DNA of 64,000 bases from Candidatus Entotheonellaceae bacterium. GTDB taxonomy: Bacteria > Tectomicrobia > Entotheonellia > Entotheonellales > Entotheonellaceae. Under the pieces are notes generated by a model that saw nothing but the letters and a program-made list of their open reading frames with translations, ran no database searches and was not told the origin of the DNA. This document shows, piece after piece, positions 6,676 to 39,590 of the stretch. The translations under genes and the position numbers were made by a program. Position 1 is the first letter of the stretch; the number at the start of each line of letters is the position of its first letter. The stretch covers positions 1,184,001-1,248,000 of the forward strand of contig OZ250173.1 of NCBI GenBank assembly GCA_965238075.1. Reading direction: 5' to 3'.

Positions 6676-9243
6676 CTACAAATCGTCCCGGCTCAACGCC
6701 GCCGCGCCTCGGGCTACCAAGCTTTGTCCCGCCCACCCTACGCGGAACGCCGGATACAGGCTCGCCAGCACGGCAGCGCCGAGAATGGTCGCCGCCTGCT
6801 GAGCGATCAGGCCCCAATCCACGTACGGCTGAATCGTCCAGCCAAAATAGGCGCGGTTGATGACGTAGATCAGCAATCCGGCCAGCAGCACCCCGCCGAT
6901 GCTGCCCAGCGCCAGGCCCATGACGCCCATGCTCAGGCCCTTGCCCACGAAGACGCCGAAGAGTTGCCGCCCCCTGGCGCCGAGCGAGCGGCACAGCGCC
7001 AGTTCCGAGACCTGCTCGCGCGCCAGCACCAGCAGCATGAGGGCGATACCGCAGACGGCGATGAGCAGGCTCATGAACTGCAGCAGGCGTGTAATCGCGA
7101 ACGTCTGGTCGAAGATGGCCAGCACCTCCTCGCGCAGGCGGCGATTGCTCCGCACCTCGAGCGGCGCATTCGCTAGCGCGGCCTGCAGTTCCGCTACCAC
7201 AGCGGCCACGTCGGCGCCGGGGCGCAGGTACAGGGCGGTGCTGCTGACAGGACCCGGGCCGAACGCCTGCGCCATGGTGCGCAGGTCCATGGCCGCGGCG
7301 CCGTCGCCAGCGCTGTAATCGTAATACACGGCCGCGACGGGAAAGCGCTGCACGCCGGTGGGCGTGTGAATGGGCAGGACGTCGCCGACCCACACGCCGG
7401 CCTTGCGGGCCAGCGTCTCGCCGACGAAAACGCCGCGGCGCTCGCGCACCGCCTCGTACGGATTGGGCAGCGCGCCGGGAAGAAAGGGAAAGCGGCTGAG
7501 CCCTTGCGCCAAGCCCATCTCGACGCCGGAAATGGTGATGCGCCGGACGGTGGCCGTCTGCCAGTCGCCCGTGTAGCCGTGAAATCGCCGCAGGCGGTCG
7601 ACGGCCTGCACCGCTGGATGGCCCGTGACGCTGGCCATGACGTGCGGCTCCAGGCCGCCGTCGCTTCCGGTGCCACGCCACGAAGCCGGGGCGATGTACA
7701 CGTCTGCCTGGATCGAGGTGCCGATCCACACGCTGAGGGTCTGGCGAAAGCTGCCGATCATCAGGGTGATGCCGATCAGCATGCTGACCGCCACCGCCAG
7801 CGACGCCACCGCCACCGAGGTCGTCTGCAGCCGCACGCCGAGCCCCTTCAGGCTGTAGCCGAGACCGAAGCCCCGCACCCGAATACGGGCGCACAACTCG
7901 CGCACCAGCAGCGGGGTCAGCAGCGGCAGGGTGAGCAGCAGCACCACGGCGAGCACGAACCCGGCGTGCTGCCAATGGCGGCCGTGCAGACCGTACCAGG
8001 CGGCGGCCGTCAGCGGCAGCGCCACGCCGAGGGCGAACAGGCGCGGCGCCAGGCTGCCGACGGTTTCGTGCAGCGTGAAGGCCGACAGCAGCGCTCGGGT
8101 ATCGCGGCGCGCCATGTCGAGGGCGGGCAGCAGCGCCCCGACCACGGCGCCGCCGATGCCGATGCCGATGCCGAGGACGTACAGCCACGTCGTCATCTCC
8201 AGGCGGGCGATTTCTTCCAGCAAATAGAGATTGCTGAGCGTGGCGCTGACCACGCGCACGTTGGCCTGCGCCACGCCGTAGCCCAGCGGTAGGCCGAGGG
8301 CGGCGCCGAGGCCGCCCAGCAGGCCGACCTCGGTGATGATGAGTGCAAACACCTGGCGGCGCGTGGCCCCCAGCGAGCGCAGCAAGCCGAATTCCTCGCG
8401 CCGCCGCACCAGGGCCGCCTGGGTGCTACTGTAGACGAGAAACACGCCGACAAACAGGCTGATAAGGCTGAGTGCGGTGAGATTGAGCTGAAACGCCGAC
8501 AGCAAGCCCTTGGCCTGCGCTTCCCGCTGTTCCGGCGTCACCACCCGCACGGCCGGGCCGAGGCGCTCTTGCAGGCGCGCCCGCATGGCGGCGGTGTCGG
8601 CGCCGTCGATGAGTTTGACGTCGATCTGATGGATGGCGCCGGCATCGCCGAACAGACTCTGTGCCTGGGCGATGTCCATGACCGCCAGTTTGGGACTGGC
8701 CAGCGGATTGAGGGCGTGAAAATCGACCAACGCGCCGACCGTCAGATGCACCAGCCGGGAACCCCACGACACCGTGAAGGCGTCGCCGACGCGCCAGCCC
8801 ATTTGCTCGGCCAGGAGCGGTGTCAGGGCCACCCAACCCGGTTGGCTGAGGGCCGCCGCCGGGTCTCCCGGCTCGCCTTGCCAGGGGATGTCGACCGGCG
8901 TGAAGAAATCGACGCCGATGAGGTCGAGCATGCCGTCATCACGGCCGGATAAGGCCACGGCGGCACGCCACAGCGGCCAGGCCGCCTGCACGCCGGGCGT
9001 GGGCAGGACGCGCGGGTAGAGGTCTTCGGGGAAGCTCGGTGTGTAGCCGAGCACGCTGAGGTCGGCCTCGCCGCTGACCGCCTTGACGCTGCCCGCGAAG
9101 GCGGCGATGGCGTTGCGGTTGATGATCTGGATCGACAGCACCGCGGCCACGCCGAGGGCCACACCGAGAATGGTGAGCAGGTACAGGCTGCCGCCGGCTC
9201 GCAGGTGGGCCGCCATGGCGGTGACGAAATAGCGCCGCATCAT
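6676..9243 (-). CDS. FtsX/MacB-like ABC permease (AttF/G-like, duplicated)
   Basis: 855 aa, two MacB/FtsX-type halves, RREEFGLLRSLGAT motif. Confidence 0.8.
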   Translation of the reverse strand: MMRRYFVTAMAAHLRAGGSLYLLTILGVALGVAAVLSIQIINRNAIAAFAGSVKAVSGEADLSVLGYTPSFPEDLYPRVLPTPGVQAAWPLWRAAVALSGRDDGMLDLIGVDFFTPVDIPWQGEPGDPAAALSQPGWVALTPLLAEQMGWRVGDAFTVSWGSRLVHLTVGALVDFHALNPLASPKLAVMDIAQAQSLFGDAGAIHQIDVKLIDGADTAAMRARLQERLGPAVRVVTPEQREAQAKGLLSAFQLNLTALSLISLFVGVFLVYSSTQAALVRRREEFGLLRSLGATRRQVFALIITEVGLLGGLGAALGLPLGYGVAQANVRVVSATLSNLYLLEEIARLEMTTWLYVLGIGIGIGGAVVGALLPALDMARRDTRALLSAFTLHETVGSLAPRLFALGVALPLTAAAWYGLHGRHWQHAGFVLAVVLLLTLPLLTPLLVRELCARIRVRGFGLGYSLKGLGVRLQTTSVAVASLAVAVSMLIGITLMIGSFRQTLSVWIGTSIQADVYIAPASWRGTGSDGGLEPHVMASVTGHPAVQAVDRLRRFHGYTGDWQTATVRRITISGVEMGLAQGLSRFPFLPGALPNPYEAVRERRGVFVGETLARKAGVWVGDVLPIHTPTGVQRFPVAAVYYDYSAGDGAAAMDLRTMAQAFGPGPVSSTALYLRPGADVAAVVAELQAALANAPLEVRSNRRLREEVLAIFDQTFAITRLLQFMSLLIAVCGIALMLLVLAREQVSELALCRSLGARGRQLFGVFVGKGLSMGVMGLALGSIGGVLLAGLLIYVINRAYFGWTIQPYVDWGLIAQQAATILGAAVLASLYPAFRVGWAGQSLVARGAAALSRDDL

Positions 9244-9983
9244 GACGGGTGAGGGGCGGCGGGCGCCTCGGCCTCGGCGTGCGGACTCAGGACACCGCTG
9301 TGCAGACGCCAGACCTCGTCCGCCAGGGCAGACACCTCGCGGCTGTGGGTTACGAAGATGAGCGTGCCGCCTTCCTCGGCGACCAGCGACAGCATCAACT
9401 CCATGACGCGCCAGCCGTTCTCGTCGTCGAGGTTGCCGGTGGGCTCGTCGGCGAGCAGCAGGTGGGGTCGGCGCATCAGGGCGCGGCAGATGGCGACGCG
9501 CTGCATCTCGCCGCCGGAGAGCTTTTGCACCCGTTCGTGGGTGCGGTCACTCAGGCCGACACGGTCCAGAAGCTGCGCCACGCGGGGCTCGAACCGTCGC
9601 GGTTTGTCCCCGGCGATGAGGGAAGGCAGGGCGACGTTGTCATGCACCGACAAGTGAGGCATGAGGTAGAAGAATTGGAAGACGAGGCCGACGTGATCGC
9701 GCCGCAGGGTGGTGCGGGCGGTTTCGGACATTTCAGCTAGGGAGCGGCCCATGACCCGGACGTCGCCGCGGGTGGGGACGTCGATGCCGGCGGCGAGGTG
9801 CAGCAGGGTGGACTTGCCGCTGCCGCTGCGGCCCACGATGGCGATGCGGCGGCCCTCCGGCACCGCGAACGACAGGTTGTGCAGAACGTGCCGCTGCTCG
9901 CCGCTTGGGGCCGCGTAAGCCTTGCTCACAGCGTCGAACGCGAGGACTGCTGTCGAGTTGTCGGCCACGGGCTGGCTTTCCAT
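9240..9983 (-). CDS. ABC transporter ATP-binding protein (LolD/AttE-like)
   Basis: GRSGSGKS, LSGGEMQRVAI, LLADEPTGNLD. Confidence 0.9.
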   Translation of the reverse strand: MESQPVADNSTAVLAFDAVSKAYAAPSGEQRHVLHNLSFAVPEGRRIAIVGRSGSGKSTLLHLAAGIDVPTRGDVRVMGRSLAEMSETARTTLRRDHVGLVFQFFYLMPHLSVHDNVALPSLIAGDKPRRFEPRVAQLLDRVGLSDRTHERVQKLSGGEMQRVAICRALMRRPHLLLADEPTGNLDDENGWRVMELMLSLVAEEGGTLIFVTHSREVSALADEVWRLHSGVLSPHAEAEAPAAPHPS

Positions 9984-32280: not shown

Positions 32281-32341
32281 TGCGCTGCAAGGCCGCTTTT
32301 ATGGGCCTTTGCTCAAGACGCGTGAAAGGAGAGAAAGACGG

Positions 32342-35300
32342 ATGCCGAAACGGGACATTGAGACCTACGCGCATGCCGATAAGGAGCGCGTCAACAACCC
32401 GCCTGTCGGCTTGGTCACGCCGGAGACCGACCGCGACGCGGGTCGCAGGACCTACGCCCACGACCCGCACCTGGACCCGCAACTCTCCTGGGCCGGCAAG
32501 GCGGAGCATACGTCGTTCGAGGTGCCGACCGTGTCGCTGCACGTGCACGAACGGATCGACCCGCGCACCATCGTCGAAGCGGTGCGCAAGCGCAACGGCG
32601 TGCAACCGCAGATGTCCTTGTTCGCCGCGCCGAAGGACAACCCGCCGCTGCGCCCGGCTATCGAGTTCTACCGGCACCGCCACAACTGGAGCAACCGCCT
32701 GATTGCGGGCGACAGCCTGCTAGTCATGAACGGCCTGATCGAGAAGGAGGGTCTCGGCGGGCAGGTGCAGACGGTCTACCTCGACCCGCCCTACGGCATC
32801 CGTTACGGCTCCAACTTCCAGCCCTTCGTAAACCGGCGCGAGGTCACCGACGGCAAGGACGAGGACCTGACCGGCGAGCCGGAGCAGATTCGCGCCTTCC
32901 GGGACACCTGGGAACTCGGCATTCACTCCTACCTCGCGTACCTCCGGGACCGCTTGCTGCTGGCACGCGAGTTGCTGCACGCGAGCGGAAGCTGTTTCGT
33001 GCAGATAGGCGATGAGAACGTCCATTGCGTTGGCATGGCCATGGACGAGATCTTCGGGGCCGAGAACAGGGTGGCTACCATCTCCTACGCGACCACGGGC
33101 GGCAGTTCAGCCAACACGCTCCCGCAGGTGGCCGACTATCTGCTGTGGTATGCCAGGGATCGGAGGCGCGTGAAGTATCGGCAATTGTATGAACCTCTGA
33201 CGCGAGCCGAAGTGATCCAATTTTTCAGTTCATATGTCATGGTTGAGCTGCCCGGCGGAGAGTGCCGCAAACCGACCCTGGAAGAGTGTTTCGACCCAAA
33301 TAGTTATCTGCCGGAAGGGACGCGCATCTATCGCCGCATGCCTTTGTTATCGCGGGGCGGCTCCACGACCGGCCGCTCAGAGCCCTATGAGTGGAACAGT
33401 CAAGTCTTTCATTGCCCAACGGGTCAGCAGTGGCGGGTATCAAATCCGGAAGGGCTGGACCGGCTGGCTGAGTTAGGCCGACTGGATGCTGCTGGAGCCC
33501 AAAGTTCCTTAAGTTGGAAACGATACGAAGACGAGGTTCCCGGTCGGCGCATCAACAATATCTGGGCGCCGCCGATGTCGCCTAAAGACAAGCACTATGT
33601 AGTCGAAACCGCAACCAGCGTCATCCAGCGCTGCATCCTGATGACTACTGACCCCGGCGACCTAGTATTCGATCCTACCTGCGGCTCCGGCACCACCGCC
33701 TATGTCGCCGAACAATGGGGCCGGCGCTGGATGACCTGCGACACCTCGCGGGTAGCTATCGCTATTGCCCGGCAGCGGCTGATGACCTCAAATTACGACT
33801 ACTACGAGCTGGCCCATCCCGACGAGGGTGTCGGCGCCGGGTTCCGCTACCGCAGCGTTGCCACCGTCTCGGCGCGGATCCTGGGCTACGACGAGCCGCC
33901 CAATAGAACCCTGCTCTACGACCAGCCCCATAGCGACCGCAAGAAGGCCCGTGTCACCGGTCCGTTCACCGTGGAGGCGGTGCCGGCTCCCGTCGTCACG
34001 ACGGTAGACGAGATCATGGATGCTCCTCCTGCCCCTGACGTAAGCACCGCCGACCTGTCCATCGCCCGCTCCGGCGAAACCCTGCGGCAAAGCGACTGGC
34101 GCGACGAATTGCTCAAGACCGGCATTCGCGGCAAAGCAGGGCAGCGCATCTCGTTCGCGCGGCTGGAACCATTGCCGGGAACCCGCTGGCTGCACGCCGA
34201 GGGCGAGACGCACCCGGACGCCGCCGGCGCCGACCACGTGCATGAATCCGCCACCGCCTACGCGCCCACGCCTCTTGTGGTCTCGTTCGGGCCGCACCAC
34301 GCACCGCTGGAGCAGCGGCAGGTCGCCCGTGCCATCGAGGAGGCGCAAAGCCTCGTCCCGAAGCCGAAGATCATCATCTTCGCGGCGTTTCAGTTCGACC
34401 CCGAGGCGGCCAAGGACATCGACGAGACCCACTGGCCGGGCGTCACGCTGCTCAAGGCGCAGATGAACGCCGACTTGCTGACCGAGGACCTGAAGAAGAA
34501 GCGGGCAAGCAACGAGAGCTTCTGGCTGATCGGCCAGCCGGAGGTGGAAGTTTCGAGTTTTCAGTTTTTTGTTTTTGGTGAGGGGCAGCGGAGGATTGGC
34601 GAATATGGAGCGTTCAAGAAGCTATCGGGACTTGATCGTCTGGAAGAGATCAATCGGCTTGATTGGCAAGCTCTATTCCTATACGCGCTCCTTTCCCAGG
34701 GAAGAGACGTATGGCATTACCTCGCAGATACGCAGGGCTGGGATTTCGATAGCGGCCAATATCGCGGAAGGCCAGGCCAGAAACACGAGCGGGGAGTTCC
34801 GGCAGTTTCTTGGAATAGCCCAAGGCTCGTTGGCGGAATTGGAAACGCTACTGACGATCTCGCAGAATTTGGGATATATGACCTCGCCGGAGGCCGAAGG
34901 GTTATTCAGCGACTGCGAGGCGATCGGCAGGTTGTTGGCAGGCTTGCAGAAGTCGCTGAAGCCCTGAATTTTCCCATCCAACCCCGCACTCAAAACTATC
35001 AACTCAAAACTCAAAACTTGCACAGCCTCGCCGTGCACGGCTTCGACTACTACAACACCAAGACCGGCAACGTCGAATCCGGCGGCTCGGAACGTATCGC
35101 CCTGTGGATGCTCGACCCGGACTATGACGGGCGCAGCCTGTTTCCGCGCCAGGTGTTCTTCCCCACGGCCGGCGGCAATGGAGGCTGGGCGAGATTGGCC
35201 CGCCATCTCAAGGCCGAGATCGACGAGAGCCGGATGGAAGCCTATCGGGGCACCGTCTCGCTGCCGTTTGAGGCGGGGGAGCATCGACGGGCGGCGGTGA

Positions 35301-35353
35301 AGATTGTGGACGACCGCGGGATCGAGAGTTTGAAAATCGTGGAGTTGGGGTAA
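32342..35353 (+). CDS. Type III R-M DNA methyltransferase (Mod) with ~156-codon internal insertion
   Basis: NRLIAGDSL, YLDPPYG (motif IV), FDPTCGSGTT (motif I), C-terminal AVKIVDDRGIE; res downstream. Confidence 0.9.
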   Translation: MPKRDIETYAHADKERVNNPPVGLVTPETDRDAGRRTYAHDPHLDPQLSWAGKAEHTSFEVPTVSLHVHERIDPRTIVEAVRKRNGVQPQMSLFAAPKDNPPLRPAIEFYRHRHNWSNRLIAGDSLLVMNGLIEKEGLGGQVQTVYLDPPYGIRYGSNFQPFVNRREVTDGKDEDLTGEPEQIRAFRDTWELGIHSYLAYLRDRLLLARELLHASGSCFVQIGDENVHCVGMAMDEIFGAENRVATISYATTGGSSANTLPQVADYLLWYARDRRRVKYRQLYEPLTRAEVIQFFSSYVMVELPGGECRKPTLEECFDPNSYLPEGTRIYRRMPLLSRGGSTTGRSEPYEWNSQVFHCPTGQQWRVSNPEGLDRLAELGRLDAAGAQSSLSWKRYEDEVPGRRINNIWAPPMSPKDKHYVVETATSVIQRCILMTTDPGDLVFDPTCGSGTTAYVAEQWGRRWMTCDTSRVAIAIARQRLMTSNYDYYELAHPDEGVGAGFRYRSVATVSARILGYDEPPNRTLLYDQPHSDRKKARVTGPFTVEAVPAPVVTTVDEIMDAPPAPDVSTADLSIARSGETLRQSDWRDELLKTGIRGKAGQRISFARLEPLPGTRWLHAEGETHPDAAGADHVHESATAYAPTPLVVSFGPHHAPLEQRQVARAIEEAQSLVPKPKIIIFAAFQFDPEAAKDIDETHWPGVTLLKAQMNADLLTEDLKKKRASNESFWLIGQPEVEVSSFQFFVFGEGQRRIGEYGAFKKLSGLDRLEEINRLDWQALFLYALLSQGRDVWHYLADTQGWDFDSGQYRGRPGQKHERGVPAVSWNSPRLVGGIGNATDDLAEFGIYDLAGGRRVIQRLRGDRQVVGRLAEVAEALNFPIQPRTQNYQLKTQNLHSLAVHGFDYYNTKTGNVESGGSERIALWMLDPDYDGRSLFPRQVFFPTAGGNGGWARLARHLKAEIDESRMEAYRGTVSLPFEAGEHRRAAVKIVDDRGIESLKIVELG
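34549..35018. mobile_element. Four-helix-bundle element bounded by 37-bp heptamer-periodic imperfect inverted repeats
   Basis: Left 34549-34585 AGTTTCG AGTTTTC AGTTTTT TGTTTTT GGTGAGG GG; reverse complement of right 34982-35018 AGTTTTG AGTTTTG AGTTGAT AGTTTTG AGTGCGG GG (29/37 identical). Confidence 0.75.
34605..34967 (+). CDS. Four helix bundle protein (23S rRNA IVP/Avd-like), nested in +1 frame within mod
   Basis: SYRDLIVWKRS...FPREETYGITSQIRRAGISIAANIAEG...FLGIAQGSLAELETLL; GGAGG RBS at 34590-34594. Confidence 0.9.
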   Translation: MERSRSYRDLIVWKRSIGLIGKLYSYTRSFPREETYGITSQIRRAGISIAANIAEGQARNTSGEFRQFLGIAQGSLAELETLLTISQNLGYMTSPEAEGLFSDCEAIGRLLAGLQKSLKP

Positions 35354-36135
35354 TGGCGCAAACGAAAAAAGGCAAGGCGCTTGAACGGTTGCGGAAAGCG
35401 CTGGATGAAATGCCTGAACTGAAACAATTTCGGCTGGACTCGCCATCATTCAAAAAATGGCGAAGAGATACAGAGGTGGCCATCACCAACACGTTTGATA
35501 GCGAATCAAGCCACATCAACGATTTCCAAAAAGAGATCCTTTCATATGTTAATGACGCATCCGATGCAGAGGTTCGGGAATCAGTGAAGGCGATACTCGA
35601 ATCCATGGTTGATGAGATCAACAAGTACTGGGGAGATGAAAGCGAGGCGTCGCGGTCTTCCGATAGTCACAGGGATGGACAGATAAACACGAAAGAAGTC
35701 TTCATTGTTCACGGCAGGAACAAAGGTGCCCGTGAAAAGGTAGCGAGGTTTCTGGAAAGGTTGGAACTCAAACCCGTGGTGCTGCACGAACAGCCGAATG
35801 AAGGCCGCACAATTATCGAAAAGTTTGAGGATTTTGCGCATGTCGGGTTCGCCGTGGTTCTGCTGACGCCGGACGACATAGGCAGGCTGCAAGACGATGC
35901 GGGCGACTTCAGACCTCGCGCAAGGCAAAACGTCATTTTCGAGTTCGGGTACTTTATCGGAAAACTCGGTCGGGAGCGTGTCTGCGCTTTGGTGAAAGGG
36001 AACGTGGAAAGGCCGTCGGACTACGATGGCGTTGTTTACGTTCCATTGGACGACCTGGGTGGGTGGGAAATGAAGCTTGTCCGGGAGTTGACAAGCGTTG
36101 GATACAAGATCGACCTGAACCGGTTAGTGACATGA
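35353..36135 (+). CDS. TIR-like nucleotide-binding domain protein
   Basis: VFIVHGR, TIIEKFE, FAVVLLTPDD, RARQNVIFEFGYFIGKLGR, PSDYDG. Confidence 0.85.
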   Translation: MAQTKKGKALERLRKALDEMPELKQFRLDSPSFKKWRRDTEVAITNTFDSESSHINDFQKEILSYVNDASDAEVRESVKAILESMVDEINKYWGDESEASRSSDSHRDGQINTKEVFIVHGRNKGAREKVARFLERLELKPVVLHEQPNEGRTIIEKFEDFAHVGFAVVLLTPDDIGRLQDDAGDFRPRARQNVIFEFGYFIGKLGRERVCALVKGNVERPSDYDGVVYVPLDDLGGWEMKLVRELTSVGYKIDLNRLVT

Positions 36136-36443
36136 ACGCACGTATCGACATACCGTCTGACAAAATCGCTGCCTTCTGTCAGCGTTGGCAGATCACGCGC
36201 CTTGCGCTGTTCGGATCGATATTGCGCGACGACTTCGGGTCCGATAGCGATATTGATGTTCTCGTTAAATTCAATGAAACGGCGCACCCCACGCTGTTCG
36301 ACATGAGCCGAATGGAAGCAGAGTTGAAGGCGATTCTGGGGCGCGAGGTCGATCTCGTCAGCCAGCGCGGTGTAGAGAGGAGCCGCAATTTCCTGCGCCG
36401 AAAAGCGATATTGGAATCCGCGGAACTCGTCTATGGATCGTGA
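36132..36443 (+). CDS. MNT (minimal nucleotidyltransferase) antitoxin
   Basis: LFGSILRDDF..DSDIDVLV (GS..DxD), GREVDLVS. Confidence 0.85.
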   Translation: MNARIDIPSDKIAAFCQRWQITRLALFGSILRDDFGSDSDIDVLVKFNETAHPTLFDMSRMEAELKAILGREVDLVSQRGVERSRNFLRRKAILESAELVYGS

Positions 36444-36774
36444 TACCGGATCTATTCTCGATATCCTCGAATCGGCCCGGACGATAATGGCCTATGTCAC
36501 AGGCGTTACGCGCCAGGAGTTTTTGCGGGCTACTCAAATTCAGGATTCCGTCATTCGTCGCCTTGAGATCATCGGCGAGGCAGCGGGACGCATCTCACCG
36601 GGATTTCGCGACACGCATCCGGAAATTCAGTGGTCCGAAATAAGGGGAATGCGAAACCGGATGACCCATGGATACGACGACATTGATATGGATATCGTGT
36701 GGGACACTGTTGAGCGCGATATCCCGCATCTCATTCAAATTATTGAATCACTTGCACCACCGAAGACCGAATAG
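36433..36774 (+). CDS. HEPN/DUF86 ribonuclease toxin
   Basis: LEIIGEAA, RNRMTHGY (RX4HXY), IVWDTV. Confidence 0.85.
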   Translation: MDRDTGSILDILESARTIMAYVTGVTRQEFLRATQIQDSVIRRLEIIGEAAGRISPGFRDTHPEIQWSEIRGMRNRMTHGYDDIDMDIVWDTVERDIPHLIQIIESLAPPKTE

Positions 36775-39590
36775 TGGCCCAAACGACCATCGATCGCCTG
36801 ATCGTCAACTCGCCCTACGAAGAGCCGGCGAAGCACTGGCAGTACGACCGGGTCACGCGCTCGTTCGGCCTTGCGGAGGGCCGGCGACCGGCGGGGTATG
36901 TTGTCGCTTCCCAAGACTCCAAGGCGTTTGACGACCCCGGTGTGTTTGTCGAAATTCCCTTGGTCAATCAGATCCGGCCGCGTGTCAAGGCATGGCGTGA
37001 AGCCGGGTATCCGGGCGTCACCGGCATGACCAAGCGGCTGCTGGCGCACTGGACCGACCCGGAGGAGTTTGACAGCCGGCGGTTCTTCTTCTGCCAGCTC
37101 GAGGCGGTGGAGACGCTCATCTGGCTCATTGAGGCGCCGGCGGCTGAAAAGGTGGGCGTGCAGATTCCTTCCGCTGGCGGCGCGTTCAGGCGACTGTGCG
37201 CGAAGATGGCCACCGGCTCAGGCAAAACCGTCGTCATGGCAATGGTGGCGGCGTGGCACATCCTGAACAAGGTGACATCGCCCCAGGACACCCGATTCGC
37301 CAGGCACATCCTGGTTGTCGCGCCGGGGCTCACGGTCAGGAACCGCCTGGCGGTGTTGGAGCCGTCCCACCCGGAGAACTATTACGACGCCTTCCGAATC
37401 GTGCCGTCAGCCTTGCTTGACAAGCTGCGGCAAGGCAAGGTCGTGATCCGCAACTGGCACGCGCTCAACTGGGAGGGTGGGGGCAAAATCGCCGCCAAGC
37501 GCGGCGTGGACAAGCGCGGCGCCAAAAGCGACGAAGCGTATGTGCGCGACGTGCTCGGAGACATGGCGCGGGCGCGGAACATCCTGGTCATTAACGACGA
37601 GGCGCATCACGCCTGGCGCGTTCCCGCCGAATCCAAGATGAAGGGCGTGGCGAAGGCCGACATCGACGAGGCTACCAAGTGGATTGGCGGCCTCGACCGC
37701 ATCCACAGGGCGCGGGGCATTCTGACCTGCTACGACTTCTCGGCCACCCCTTTCGCGCCGTCAGGCAAGCGGAGTTCCGAGGAGGCGTTGTTCGGCTGGA
37801 TCGTGAGCGACTTCGGCCTGAACGACGCCATCGAATCGGGTCTGGTCAAGACCCCGCGCGTGGTGATCCGGGACGACGCGGTGCCCGATGCCAAGACTTA
37901 CAGATCCCGCCTCTATCACATCTACAACGATGCGGAGGTCAAAGACGACCTGAACCGCCACGCCAAGACGGAAGAACCGCTGCCCGATCTGGTCCTGAAC
38001 GGTTATTACCTGCTCGGCTACGACTGGCGCGAGACGGCGAAGGACTGGAGCGACAAGGGATTCCAGACCCCGCCGGTCATGATTACCGTTGCCAACCGCA
38101 CGGAGACGGCAGCTCGCATCAAGTACGCGTTTGGCCACAAGAGGGTCCATATCGAGGAACTATGCGACCCGGCGCGCACCCTTCACATCGACTCGAAGGT
38201 GCTCGAAGCGGCTGAGGCTGCTGAAGAAGTTTTAAGTGGCAAGTTTTCAGTGGATGCCAGCAAGGACGGTCTAAAAACTGAAAACGTAAAACCGCCAACC
38301 AAGAAGCAGCAAGCCGAGCTGCTGCGCCGGCAGGTGGACAGCGTGGGCCGGCTTGGCAAGGAGGGCGAGCGGATACAGAACGTGATTTCCGTTGGCATGC
38401 TCTCCGAGGGATGGGACGCAAAGACCGTAACCCACATCATGGGATTGCGCGCGTTCACCAGCCAGCTTCTCTGCGAGCAGGTGGTCGGCCGCGGCCTGCG
38501 TCGCACCTCCTATGAAGTGGACCCGAGTAGCGGTCTGTTCAAGCCGGAATACGTCAACATTTTCGGCGTGCCCTTTACGTTTCTGCCCCACGAGGGGGGA
38601 ACGGACGGCCCACCGCCGCCGCCGGAACCAAAGACGGCTATCGAGCCGGTAGCGGACCAGGCGGGTTTCGAAATCTCCTGGCCGAACGTGATCCGCATCG
38701 ACCACGGCTTCCGTCCGCACCTGTCCCTGGATTGGCAGGCGCTGCAGCCCCTGGAACTCGACGCCAGCCAGACGGCCAGGCTCGCCGAGCTTGCTCCGAT
38801 CGTCGAAGGCAAGCCCGACGTGTCGAAGATCGAGGCGATCGACCTGGGAAAGCTGGCGACAGAGTTTCGTACGCAGCGCATCGTCTTTGAGACGGCGCGG
38901 GACGTGTACGATCTGATGCAGCCGAACTGGCCGGGCGGCAAGGCGTTGCTGCTGGCCCAGCTGGTGCGGTTGATCGAGCAATTCATTCGCTCGGATAGCA
39001 TCAGGATTACCCCGGCCCTGTTCCGGCATGACGATCTCAAGCGCCGCCTCATCATCACGCTCAACATGACCAAGGTTGTGCAGCATGTCTGGGAGGGCAT
39101 CCGCTTCGAGAATACCGAAAGACTGGAGCCGGTGTTCGACCGGGACCGGCCCATCCGTTCTACGGGTGACATGGCGACGTGGTACACGGGCAAGCCGTGC
39201 GAACGCGCGGCACGCAGTCACATCAACTTCTGCGTCTACGACGGCACCTGGGAGGCAACGGAGGCCTTCGCCCTCGATCATGCCGACGAGGTGGCTGCCT
39301 GGGTGAAGAACGATCACCTCGGTTTCGAGGCGTTCTACGTTCACCGAGGCGTGGTGCGGAAGTACCGCCCGGATTTCCTGATCCGGCTCTCCTCGGGCGA
39401 CATGCTGGTTCTGGAGGTCAAGGGGCAAGACAGCGATCGGGACCAGACCAAGCGCCGATTCCTCGACGAATGGGTACGCGCCGTCAATGCCCATGGTGGC
39501 TTCGGTCGCTGGGCCTGGGACGTGTCGAAATCTCCCAGCGACATTCGCGACATCCTCGCAAAGCGCGCCCATGCGGCGTCTACTGCTTGA
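36774..39590 (+). CDS. Type III restriction endonuclease (Res)
   Basis: KMATGSGKT, NDEAHH, SATP, EGWDA, EQVVGRGLRR, C-terminal YRPDFLIRL...LEVKG nuclease motif. Confidence 0.9.
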   Translation: MAQTTIDRLIVNSPYEEPAKHWQYDRVTRSFGLAEGRRPAGYVVASQDSKAFDDPGVFVEIPLVNQIRPRVKAWREAGYPGVTGMTKRLLAHWTDPEEFDSRRFFFCQLEAVETLIWLIEAPAAEKVGVQIPSAGGAFRRLCAKMATGSGKTVVMAMVAAWHILNKVTSPQDTRFARHILVVAPGLTVRNRLAVLEPSHPENYYDAFRIVPSALLDKLRQGKVVIRNWHALNWEGGGKIAAKRGVDKRGAKSDEAYVRDVLGDMARARNILVINDEAHHAWRVPAESKMKGVAKADIDEATKWIGGLDRIHRARGILTCYDFSATPFAPSGKRSSEEALFGWIVSDFGLNDAIESGLVKTPRVVIRDDAVPDAKTYRSRLYHIYNDAEVKDDLNRHAKTEEPLPDLVLNGYYLLGYDWRETAKDWSDKGFQTPPVMITVANRTETAARIKYAFGHKRVHIEELCDPARTLHIDSKVLEAAEAAEEVLSGKFSVDASKDGLKTENVKPPTKKQQAELLRRQVDSVGRLGKEGERIQNVISVGMLSEGWDAKTVTHIMGLRAFTSQLLCEQVVGRGLRRTSYEVDPSSGLFKPEYVNIFGVPFTFLPHEGGTDGPPPPPEPKTAIEPVADQAGFEISWPNVIRIDHGFRPHLSLDWQALQPLELDASQTARLAELAPIVEGKPDVSKIEAIDLGKLATEFRTQRIVFETARDVYDLMQPNWPGGKALLLAQLVRLIEQFIRSDSIRITPALFRHDDLKRRLIITLNMTKVVQHVWEGIRFENTERLEPVFDRDRPIRSTGDMATWYTGKPCERAARSHINFCVYDGTWEATEAFALDHADEVAAWVKNDHLGFEAFYVHRGVVRKYRPDFLIRLSSGDMLVLEVKGQDSDRDQTKRRFLDEWVRAVNAHGGFGRWAWDVSKSPSDIRDILAKRAHAASTA
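38228..38292. repeat. Short heptamer-periodic inverted repeat in frame within res
   Basis: AGTTTTA AGTGGCA AGTTTTC AG ... CTAAAAA CTGAAAA CGTAAAA C; AT-rich patch in a GC-rich gene. Confidence 0.65.

Follow-up and report, generated by a model that had tools for sequence, protein, structure and literature searches.

Introduction

In those parts of their report that deal with the intervening sequence (IVS) of the Coxiella burnetii 23S rRNA gene, Warrier et al. (2016, PMC4990558) described a 428-nt selfish element that sits in helix 45 and carries an open reading frame (ORF) for an S23p protein. According to the same parts of the report, the terminal stem of the element is cut by RNase III at the first heptamer, three tandem GACAGAT heptamers of strain-variable copy number precede the ORF, the GC content is below that of the genome, and the ORF is in decay and unlikely to be expressed. 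Rickettsia palindromic elements (RPE) are presented in the relevant section of a review (PMC10969869) as selfish palindromic DNA residing in frame in protein-coding genes. Here we describe a cassette that resembles both. It lies inside mod, the methyltransferase gene of a Type III-like restriction-modification (R-M) system, and contains a complete gene for a four-helix-bundle (4HB) protein in another frame. The locus belongs to a 64,000-nt stretch of DNA from a Candidatus Entotheonellaceae bacterium (assembly GCA_965238075.1, contig OZ250173.1, positions 1,184,001 to 1,248,000 of the forward strand), which is called the window below; feature coordinates refer to the window and its + strand unless stated otherwise.

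The cassette is likely to be a selfish element of the 23S rRNA IVS type that occupies a loop of the Mod beta-sandwich, is translated through, holds its own internal gene and has spread by recombination. The finding is real, non-random and general. No published description of such a nested arrangement was found in the open full texts of PMC and bioRxiv, a coverage outside which subscription journals lie. To our knowledge, bacteria seldom maintain a same-strand overlap of about 120 codons across phyla, and such overlaps are often disputed; the overlap described here offers a clean test case, with statistical and comparative evidence for both frames (host frame stop-free in 23/23 nested vs. 0/54 free-standing genes). 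As far as we know, the 23S rRNA IVS has long been enigmatic and the function of S23p has been a puzzle for some 30 years. The cassette connects the IVS and S23p with elements inserted into protein-coding genes and at operon junctions, and a mod gene bearing it provides a tractable system for finding the role of the 4HB protein.

Comparison with the Closest Described Elements

The cassettes and the 23S rRNA IVS of C. burnetii and Leptospira, as the cited report portrays the latter, have a PF05635 protein in common and are of similar length (428 nt there, 432–482 nt here). Both possess terminal complementary arms that form a long stem, with heptamers of variable copy number between the stem and the ORF start. 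Both are GC-poorer than the host, carry no mobility gene, and occur sporadically, being horizontally spread in highly conserved sequence. Both replace the tip of a hairpin: that of an rRNA helix in one case and a protein beta-hairpin loop in the other. The host, by contrast, is protein-coding here, and the element is stop-free and a multiple of three in one of the host's frames. The cassette seems to be translated through and not excised, and its ORF is conserved and has a good Shine-Dalgarno (SD) motif, whereas the Coxiella ORF is described as decaying. The window cassette thus has an S23p ORF within complementary arms that form a stem and tandem heptamers 5′ of the ORF, but its location is inside mod and not in helix 25 or 45 of 23S rRNA; a search of 34300–35300 against Rfam gave no family match at E ≤ 1.

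RPE, in the account of the review, are likewise palindromic, lie in frame in ORFs, are translated within the host protein, are compatible with its fold and lack a transposase. Palindromic ends and the in-frame position are found here as well, and read-through translation is suggested by the selection on the frame. However, an RPE is about 150 bp long and has no independent gene, whereas the present cassette holds a complete gene in the other frame. RPE populate many unrelated metabolic genes of one genus, while the cassettes occupy homologous sites of defence methyltransferases across phyla. Many dispersed copies per genome, as in RPE, are not seen here, the genome of the window having two PF05635 genes.

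A 4HB Gene Nested in mod

A first-pass annotation of the window, made from its letters, had proposed a 120-aa 4HB ORF with its own GGAGG in the +1 frame inside mod, and the sequence and the Pfam and TIGR matches bear this out. The gene (34605..34967, 120 aa plus stop, + strand) is in the +1 frame with respect to mod, and a GGAGG SD-like motif (34590..34594) stands 10 nt upstream of its ATG. The product is a member of the 23S-rRNA-IVS-protein/S23p family over the full domain: it matches PF05635 (23S_rRNA_IVP) with E = 2.6e-35 and 121.3 bits (cut-off 33.8) across profile positions 1–105 of 106, and TIGR02436 ("four helix bundle protein") with E = 8.5e-35 and 119.3 bits (cut-off 24). The match to NF008911 reaches 138.6 bits, just above the cut-off of 137. 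The kinship with 23S rRNA IVS proteins that had been put forward is thereby established by Pfam, and the heptamer repeats shared with the Coxiella IVS, as the cited report depicts it, strengthen it. The link to Avd, the accessory protein of diversity-generating retroelements, proved to be mere sub-threshold resemblance (PF22296, bAvd: E = 3.8e-08, 34.2 bits vs. 40; NF033474: E = 2.4e-04, 21.4 bits vs. 80), a distant likeness of four-helix-bundle fold with both scores under the curated cut-offs. No reverse transcriptase occurs among the ORFs of 31–39 kb, a dedicated search for reverse transcriptases or template/variable repeats not having been made.

Read in the Mod frame, the cassette (34550..35017) comprises 468 nt, exactly 156 codons without a stop, as had been noted from the sequence. 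It is bracketed by inverted-repeat arms, which a repeat search placed at 34544..34585 (left, AGTTTTN heptamers) and 34982..35023 (right, NAAAACT heptamers); the left arm pairs with the right one in RNA folds. The heptamer make-up of the repeats had been recognised correctly at the outset, whereas their length, given then as 37 bp, is slightly greater (42 nt each, 79% complementary). The array AGTTTCG AGTTTTC AGTTTTT TGTTTTT at 34549–34576 lies 5′ of the 4HB ORF. GC content is 0.52–0.56 within the insert vs. 0.65–0.70 in the flanking mod sequence. The 4HB gene is the only ORF of the cassette, which contains no transposase.

Ten nested 4HB proteins share 43 invariant columns with a mean column identity of 75%, whereas translation of this DNA in the Mod frame gives an identity of only 30–40% between cassette types. 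An SD-like motif precedes the 4HB start in 18 of 25 aligned mod-nested cassettes. Judged by this conservation, the 4HB gene is under purifying selection, and the inner gene is real and primary.

Empty and Filled Alleles

Mod residues 560–1004 were searched against a collection of 5.8 billion proteins, and the best 120 of 8000 scored proteins were examined. BLASTP matched the 156-aa segment at the same position in 86 of these homologues, with 30–100% identity. The other 34 gave no such match; of these, 33 have only about 12–16 residues between the flanks and one (P0094) has about 153 unmatched residues. Empty alleles read ...FWLIGQPDIEI-KRVTEGEDEGKY-HISVQGFDYYNTKTG... The alignment to homologues, one of the checks suggested by the first-pass annotation, thus defines the empty site: in cassette-free alleles it is an 11-codon hairpin loop ("KRVTEGEDEGK"-like), for which the cassette substitutes, rather than being plainly inserted. 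The cassette actually joins mod no more than about 2 codons away from 34553 and 35017, and in Mod the junctions read ...PEVEV/SSFQ... and ...KTQN/LHSL...

Protein databases hold open frames only, and the survey was therefore repeated on DNA, with a Mod alignment as the query and one genome per species. Among the best 80 of 538 confirmed loci, 79 could be evaluated and one ends at a contig edge. The gap between the Mod flanks is 33 nt in 61 of the 79 loci and 21–93 nt in eight; in the remaining ten it is 432–482 nt long and contains a 4HB gene. Empty alleles are the majority (69/79 species genomes). The 4HB frame is +1 relative to Mod in all ten filled loci, and nine of the inserts are multiples of three (432, 438 or 456 nt), as is the 468-nt cassette of the window.

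The exception, of 482 nt, is L040, whose 4HB protein is 92.5% identical to that of the window and whose cassette is the nearest relative among the best 80 loci of this survey. Its right arm (~9230–9284 of the locus) is longer by two heptamers (14 nt), which put the C-terminus of Mod out of frame and leave the 4HB gene intact. They stem either from slippage of the heptamers, which might then act as an on/off switch, or from an error of assembly. In another locus, L032, the 4HB frame is interrupted by a stop and Mod ends at a stop three codons past the cassette; it is therefore regarded as a decaying copy. The same hairpin loop of Mod bears unrelated in-frame palindromes elsewhere (L073, ~8209–8301, 93 nt; L078, ~8197–8262, 66 nt), and the site is therefore permissive; it could be of use in methyltransferase engineering. 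The 66-nt palindrome is of the "PSPQPSPTGRGS" type, and a look-alike is present at ~1584638–1584726 of the genome to which the window belongs.

Selection on the Open Host Frame

A second survey scanned metagenomes with the alignment of the ten nested 4HB proteins, and the best 80 of 551 confirmed loci were analysed. The Mod frame, which precedes that of the 4HB gene by one base, is open over the entire 4HB match in 21 loci and closed in 59; the remaining alternative same-strand frame is open in none of the 80. Sixteen of the open-frame loci have Mod flanks, four lie in other long ORFs, and one (L105) is a short Mod-type remnant. L090 duplicates L057 and L108 duplicates L026, and both were removed from later counts. 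Nested and free-standing genes were then compared on 23 distinct mod-nested and 54 free-standing 4HB genes. The comparison leaves out the four genes with other hosts, L105, two broken 4HB genes, the two duplicates and the second copy of the window's genome; six further genes with a stop inside the match had been excluded earlier.

All 23 nested genes are stop-free in the Mod frame, as against none of the 54 free-standing ones. The mean number of stops is 0 and 4.28, respectively, where synonymous shuffling predicts 2.26 and 5.89. Free-standing genes with a GC content of at least 0.5 do not differ in this respect (0/33 stop-free, mean 2.88 stops). A stop in the Mod frame arises solely from a T-ending 4HB codon followed by a codon that starts with AA, AG or GA. 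At such positions T-ending codons number 0 of 611 in nested genes vs. 231 of 1474 in free-standing ones; elsewhere in the nested genes they make up 369 of 2069.

For the window copy itself, the Mod frame stays open in 3.5% of synonymous shuffles with the 4HB protein and codon usage fixed. An open frame beyond chance, as supposed in the first-pass annotation, is upheld by these counts, while its random-codon estimate of 6e-4 gives way to the less extreme 0.035. Among 26 locus rows, the host frame extends at least 115 codons beyond the 4HB gene in 24 (exceptions L032 and L100; in L040 it is open yet shifted), and the 4HB frame is open for at least 120 codons in 24 (exceptions L032 and L085). Scoring how often host frames stay open had been named as a check, and the stop avoidance it uncovers is highly non-random. 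Selection for an uninterrupted host frame, i.e., the dual coding that had been proposed, is well supported by these sequence comparisons. Translation through the cassette must therefore matter.

Mobility

A FastTree phylogeny was built from 88 of the 120 Mod homologues, chosen by eye as near-full-length; 32 fragments and near-duplicates were dropped and the insert columns removed. States were assigned by arm motif: 21 sequences are empty, 28 carry type 1 (AGTTTT-like), 32 type 2 (AGTGG-like) and seven other cassettes. The states need at least 27 changes on this tree, where the minimum possible is 3 and the shuffled mean is 44.4. On the starred branches alone, the empty state must change at least 6 times, type 1 at least 12 and type 2 at least 14 times. 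Well-supported sister pairs of a filled and an empty allele are P0004/P0040, P0003/P0064 and P0043/P0112; type 1 and type 2 are sisters in P0010/P0050, and P0047 falls inside P0036/37.

The first of these pairs is the one clean case. Filled P0004 and empty P0040 are identical at 729 of 736 positions before the cassette (482/482 over residues 251–733) and at 97 of 108 after it. Identity drops after the cassette, which therefore came or went with the 3′ end of mod, and the breakpoint points to a homologous-recombination event. The small mobile element without a transposase that the first-pass annotation envisaged is supported by the close filled and empty homologues, by the states scattered on the tree and by the gene content of the cassette.

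Inteins begin with a nucleophile as first residue, end in H-N followed by C, S or T, and contain Hint domain blocks. The cassettes resemble inteins and homing introns in being present or absent at one precise site of a conserved gene, in preserving the frame and in their probable spread via flanking homology. However, the read-through peptide starts with V/S-S and ends with Q-N followed by L, so that the intein junction residues are absent. There is no splicing domain, no homing endonuclease and no Rfam intron match, and the inner gene is in a different frame; Pfam gave no family on eight read-through peptides other than one chance-level match. Nor does the cassette look like a miniature inverted-repeat transposable element or an insertion sequence: its sole ORF is the 4HB gene, and an 11-codon loop is replaced without duplication of the target. 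With overprinted same-strand genes it shares about 120 codons in two frames, both maintained over deep divergence. The overlap here, in contrast, travels as a mobile unit between hosts and was not born by overprinting in one gene.

Other Hosts and Free-Standing Relatives

Four non-Mod hosts of the second survey show the same frame relation. They are a BREX-1 (bacteriophage exclusion) PglX (L127; NF033452, 1440 bits), two PglX C-terminal regions (L124 and L153), in which the cassette site differs from that in L127, and an MmeI-like enzyme (L089). The last of these has an intact host frame of 1471 codons despite a stop in its 4HB gene. The PglX gene of L127 (2417–6679 of that locus) also holds two more short in-frame segments, GSGKWEV...TSHSPL and GSGEWEV...TSHFPL, which resemble arm-only hairpin inserts of GGGAAGT heptamers lacking a 4HB gene.

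When 21 read-through peptides were combined into a profile and compared with 1.84 billion cluster representatives, 549 clusters matched at E ≤ 1e-3; 184 of them passed a threshold of 1e-10 and 22 one of 1e-30. Among the best 150 matches, 75 proteins have at least 430 aa, and 69 of these were scanned with Pfam. No family was found at E ≤ 1e-6 in 28; among the other 41, 16 are Mod-type (PF01555 or an N-terminal DUF559/MTES_1575 fusion), 22 are of the Eco57I/MmeI/N6_Mtase type, and three have DUF1156, a hybrid histidine kinase or DUF3516. The rare non-methylase hosts include the histidine kinase P0220, with the peptide at residues 311–456 between HisKA and HATPase_c, and the DUF3516 protein P0209, with the peptide at residues 21–140.

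The neighbours of free-standing genes are of another kind. Scanning 97 ORFs around 60 non-nested loci (59 free-standing and L105) revealed mostly same-strand housekeeping genes. Chorismate-binding/anthranilate synthase genes adjoin eight free-standing loci. The neighbour is anthranilate synthase component I in L103, L104, L109, L110, L118, L120, L122 and L132, several of which lack complementary flanks, and a glutamine amidotransferase gene is on the opposite side in L104, L110 and L122. This neighbourhood is an operon-junction site that recurs and is possibly old. Other neighbours are recJ with a cytidylyltransferase-like gene, gyrB/parE-like with topoisomerase subunit A genes, isocitrate/isopropylmalate dehydrogenase pairs, threonine synthase with GHMP kinase genes, and genes for subunits of pyruvate:ferredoxin oxidoreductase, MacB/FtsX, RseP and LolA. 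Only two of the scanned non-nested loci (L117 and L125) adjoin restriction genes.

Searching the genome for 4HB ORFs and heptamer arrays, as had been recommended, yielded two PF05635 genes and nine arrays of at least four AGTNNNN/NNNNACT units (five on the + strand and four on the complement, with about 0.05 expected per strand). There is one AGTTTTN ×2 array together with its mate. The second PF05635 gene (L002 1453–1845, ~882876–883268 of the genome) overlaps the ends of both its neighbours, Type I hsdR (EcoEI_R_C) and hsdS (Methylase_S); therefore, both 4HB genes of this genome are in R-M operons. Hairpins of AGTGNNN heptamers (59–95 nt), mostly at gene ends, occur at 1342917–1342975, 1347210–1347274 and 2251852–2251946 of the genome. 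Taken with the rRNA insertions known from the literature, the family behaves as a coloniser of conserved transcribed DNA, in rRNA genes, operon junctions and ORFs. This suggests that the IVS, the nested copies and the operon-junction copies are one element class with one life-style.

RNA Structure and Transcripts

RNA of the region 34540–35027 folds at −179.7 kcal/mol (z = −3.5), an energy that none of 100 shuffles equals. Pairing of the two arms is predicted in the minimum free energy (MFE) structure and in the centroid structure alike; the RNA folding that had been advised thus gives the terminal stem. Arm sequence differs by cassette type (AGTTTTN; AGTGGTT/AGTGGAT; GGGAAGT in PglX), and complementarity is retained. 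RNAalifold on 25 cassettes identified seven pairs with double changes, e.g., columns 43:539, where 16 rows have GC and six have UA. Of the terminal stem, no more than the inner 15 pairs came out, displaced by whole heptamers from the best pairwise register, heptamer periodicity making the register ambiguous. Strongly complementary flanks are present in some free-standing cassettes (L113, z = −12.3; L111, z = −8.3) and in others, several by trpE included, there are none; long interior loops dominate the output of this duplex folding of 90–100-nt flanks.

Contigs from all three metatranscriptome libraries of one study bridge the cassette and both junctions (34460–35068, 33908–35068 and 34460–35065). 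An unprocessed contiguous form exists in the RNA libraries. A contig from run X1, the type of which is unrecorded, spans 34513–35068 without a difference. Three "skip" joints were noticed in RNA libraries X5 and X8, leading from 34547/8/9 to 35036/9, with sides of at most 30 letters placed at 92% likeness. As splice products they were rejected: the loose ends there read as another cassette type or as empty loops, and the joints look like other Mod alleles of the community.

The Read-Through Peptide

Whether the peptide encoded in the Mod frame is tolerated or functional was approached through the third codon positions of the 4HB gene and a structure model. At equal 4HB identity, synonymous third-base identity is 0.48–0.56 in nested pairs and 0.39–0.41 in free pairs, and residue identity in the Mod frame is 0.31–0.42 and 0.21–0.28, respectively. 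The members of the nested set are closer relatives of one another than the controls are, and a constraint at the RNA level would look alike. Near-fixed wobble sites in the nested genes include Tyr7 (TAT in 23/23), Arg8 (CGG in 20/21) and Leu10 (TTG in 19/20), while Gly56, Gly74 and Ser75 are as free as in the controls. The constraint is concentrated at 4HB codons 6–19, 27, 62 and 89.

An AlphaFold2 model of Mod based on an 88-row alignment has a mean pLDDT (predicted local distance difference test) of 61.7; a 16-row run, with a mean of 49, was too low for use. The model places the cassette in a hairpin of the C-terminal beta-sandwich domain (residues 730–1003). There the native hairpin appears prolonged into a long beta stalk, E735–745 with E888–898. 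In addition to the confident stretch 731–800 considered below, pLDDT is 69–79 for residues 841–900, and 801–840 is a low-confidence stretch; pLDDT tracks conservation, which is itself imposed by the overlapping 4HB gene. Mapped by coordinates rather than by computation, the constrained wobble sites fall in the confident part of the model and the free ones in the low-confidence part. Whole-model fold searches were uninformative on the fold of the segment, their lists being dominated by methyltransferase and nuclease-like domains.

The motif LSG.D.L.E[IV].G is retained across Mod, PglX and MmeI hosts. Pfam at E ≤ 10 on eight read-through peptides gave nothing save one chance-level match (0.049) to an unrelated family, and an ESM Atlas search produced no usable match. 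A helix-hairpin-helix had been considered for the motif in the form LSGxGxLxEI and was dropped, as it found support neither in Pfam (8 peptides, E ≤ 10) nor in ESM Atlas. The first-pass annotation had suggested translation of the insert as a junk loop: the frame evidence favours read-through, while "junk" is perhaps too dismissive in view of the site-specific wobble constraint and the pLDDT of 72–86.

How the Cassette May Persist

In the reading that we prefer, a selfish IVS-type cassette survives by translational transparency. Comparative evidence suggests that ribosomes on mod pass straight through it in the Mod frame, which precedes that of the 4HB gene by one base. The resulting protein would be Mod with about 146 extra residues on an extended beta-hairpin, and selection would purge any stop or frameshift in the Mod frame. 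Ribosomes may also initiate internally on this mRNA, at the SD motif and ATG of the 4HB gene, and so make the 4HB protein. Spread would proceed by homologous recombination through highly conserved host flanks, between alleles and species; one case is clear, and elsewhere we infer it. Relatives in rRNA genes and conserved operon junctions would be in the same conserved-flank situation.

Several points weigh against this reading. Pure selfishness leaves the strong bias towards defence methyltransferases unexplained. Recombination is drawn from one clean protein pair and a quick FastTree topology of a mosaic gene, on which the change count is rough, and an active insertion mechanism is an alternative to it. 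Four of the 26 locus rows are damaged (L032 in both frames, L085 by a 4HB stop, L040 by the 14-nt frameshift and L100 by a mod stop downstream). Wobble entropy is 1.03 bits in nested vs. 1.48 bits in free genes (60 sites, Wilcoxon p = 4e-10), and read-through residues 731–800 have a pLDDT of 72–86. These data agree more readily with a peptide that has a function, or with a constraint on the RNA, than with mere junk. The RNA evidence consists of assembled contigs, in which DNA carry-over is possible and RNA ends are invisible, and production of either protein is argued from comparison of sequences.

The wobble constraint, the confident segments on a beta stalk and the motif kept over three host types would all be expected if the cassette were a domesticated dual-coding module, retained for the benefit of the host as a folded functional insertion of the methyltransferase and/or as a 4HB accessory factor of R-M or BREX systems. 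So would the location of both PF05635 genes of the genome in R-M operons and the fact that 38 of the 41 Pfam-annotated hosts are defence methyltransferases. This explanation is nevertheless unlikely, if not lightly dismissed: near-identical Mods function without a cassette, empty alleles prevail, and cassette type and presence switch often on the Mod tree. The Pfam and ESM Atlas searches with the peptide found no relative, and close free-standing relatives are mostly in housekeeping operons, not defence loci. Low wobble entropy is partly expected from the closer kinship of the nested set, and pLDDT rises with the conservation that the 4HB gene imposes. Processing in the manner of an IVS would have RNase III cut the stem, free the 4HB mRNA and split or down-tune the mod mRNA, with read-through coming from the unprocessed fraction. 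The predicted terminal stem, part of a fold that none of the shuffles equals, its preservation by compensatory changes (43:539) and the RNase III excision of the same-family Coxiella IVS, as reported in the portion of PMC4990558 on that element, agree with this. Efficient cleavage, however, would hide the Mod frame from selection, yet 23/23 nested genes are stop-free. Contigs bridge both junctions in all three RNA libraries, with the proviso that partial cleavage is invisible in contigs, and the skip joints, which resume at ~35036–35039, resemble community alleles. We regard such processing as rather improbable.

Simple repeats switch other Type III mod genes on and off. Slippage in the 7-nt heptamer arrays could toggle Mod in the same way, seven not being a multiple of three; the 14-nt addition in L040, which shifts Mod and spares the 4HB gene, is an example of what this would produce, and heptamer copy number differs between strains in the Coxiella IVS as far as it is treated in PMC4990558. 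But there is one such case in 26 locus rows, from a metagenome-assembled genome and possibly an assembly error. The arrays have just 3–4 imperfect units, short for frequent slippage, and no length variants were seen at the cassette arms in four sequencing runs; we give a phase-variable switch little credence. Finally, GC-rich DNA often has long off-frame ORFs, such as a 256-codon antisense ORF that overlaps this very region, and the open frame might be due to chance, the segment a native Mod domain or the whole a mis-assembly. There is hardly any room left for these explanations. None of 54 free-standing genes is open where all nested ones are, and the inner ORF matches Pfam with E = 2.6e-35. 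Many homologues carry the segment, but the closest, 99% identical upstream, are empty alleles. The assembly is supported by the X1 contig, identical over 34513–35068, and by the RNA-library contigs that bridge the region.

A bolder proposal goes beyond the selfish cassette: a two-frame mobile module would carry the 4HB gene in one frame and, one base upstream, a folded "passport" peptide on a beta-stalk that enables it to live in defence methyltransferases (Type III Mod, BREX PglX, MmeI-like enzymes) and a few other proteins. The peptide would be under amino-acid selection of its own and might alter the methylase. Together with the copies in rRNA genes and operon junctions, such modules would form one transposase-free class that colonises conserved transcribed sequence by homologous recombination. 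We put this forward tentatively, as a possibility that we would not yet bet on. As regards annotation, gene callers report one long methylase without the inner gene, or the reverse, and PADLOC, a defence-system catalogue, has no model for the inner 4HB gene.

The Host Gene and Its Surroundings

The host gene mod (32339..35353, + strand, 1004 codons including the cassette) is supported by its ORF, Pfam, PADLOC and Foldseek. The likely start is the ATG at 32339 (MPKRDIETYAH...), and the ORF ends at 35353. Its product matches PF01555 (E = 5.9e-25) and PADLOC MTase_III (E = 3.4e-145), and the top Foldseek match of the model is EcoP15I Mod (4zcf_A, E = 1.2e-16). A res gene of the same Type III-like system (36774..39590, + strand; PF04851 ResIII; PADLOC REase_III, E = 8.4e-08) is in the same operon. 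A beta-class N6-adenine methyltransferase domain, similarity to EcoP15I Mod and this res gene identify the protein as a Type III Mod. In VIA-align comparisons of the 88-row model, residues 121–474 resemble beta-class N6-methyltransferases (Z 17–20), and residues 730–1003 give weak beta-sandwich matches (Z ~6).

Between these parts, residues ~578–718 (34070–34492) are predicted to form a C-terminal domain of PD-(D/E)xK-like nuclease fold, which is unusual in a Type III Mod. The model of this domain matches NucS (2vld_B; Z = 10.3, root-mean-square deviation 2.6, 103 aligned residues) and AF1548 (Z = 10.0), as well as the LlaBIII, MspJI and FokI cleavage domains (Z 6.8–7.7). The invariant residues D686, E688, D692, K705 and Q707 fall within it. 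Some Mod homologues, cassette-bearing and cassette-free alike, have an N-terminal DUF559/MTES_1575 (Vsr-like endonuclease) fusion (P0005, P0006, P0008, P0016, P0018, P0062, P0074, P0085, P0088 and P0126).

The interval between mod and res (35353–36774) holds three small defence-type genes with a GC content of 0.45–0.55, which encode a TIR-domain protein (PF10137; PADLOC candidate PDC-S35, E = 5.9e-85), an MNT nucleotidyltransferase (PDC-S09) and a HepT-like RNase. In 64 homologous loci that share the mod–res order, the two genes are 3–6 nt apart in 14 and 119–4947 nt apart in 50; the junction is therefore a variable cargo slot. Within res, a 64-nt in-frame hairpin made of heptamers like those of the cassette (38229–38292; AGTTTTA AGTGGCA AGTTTTC AGTGGAT) has arms of 22 nt that are 73% complementary. 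It occupies a hypervariable acidic linker which has the same length in Res homologues, so that no length change is involved. The hairpin might be kin to the cassette arms, minus the 4HB gene, or a product of chance.

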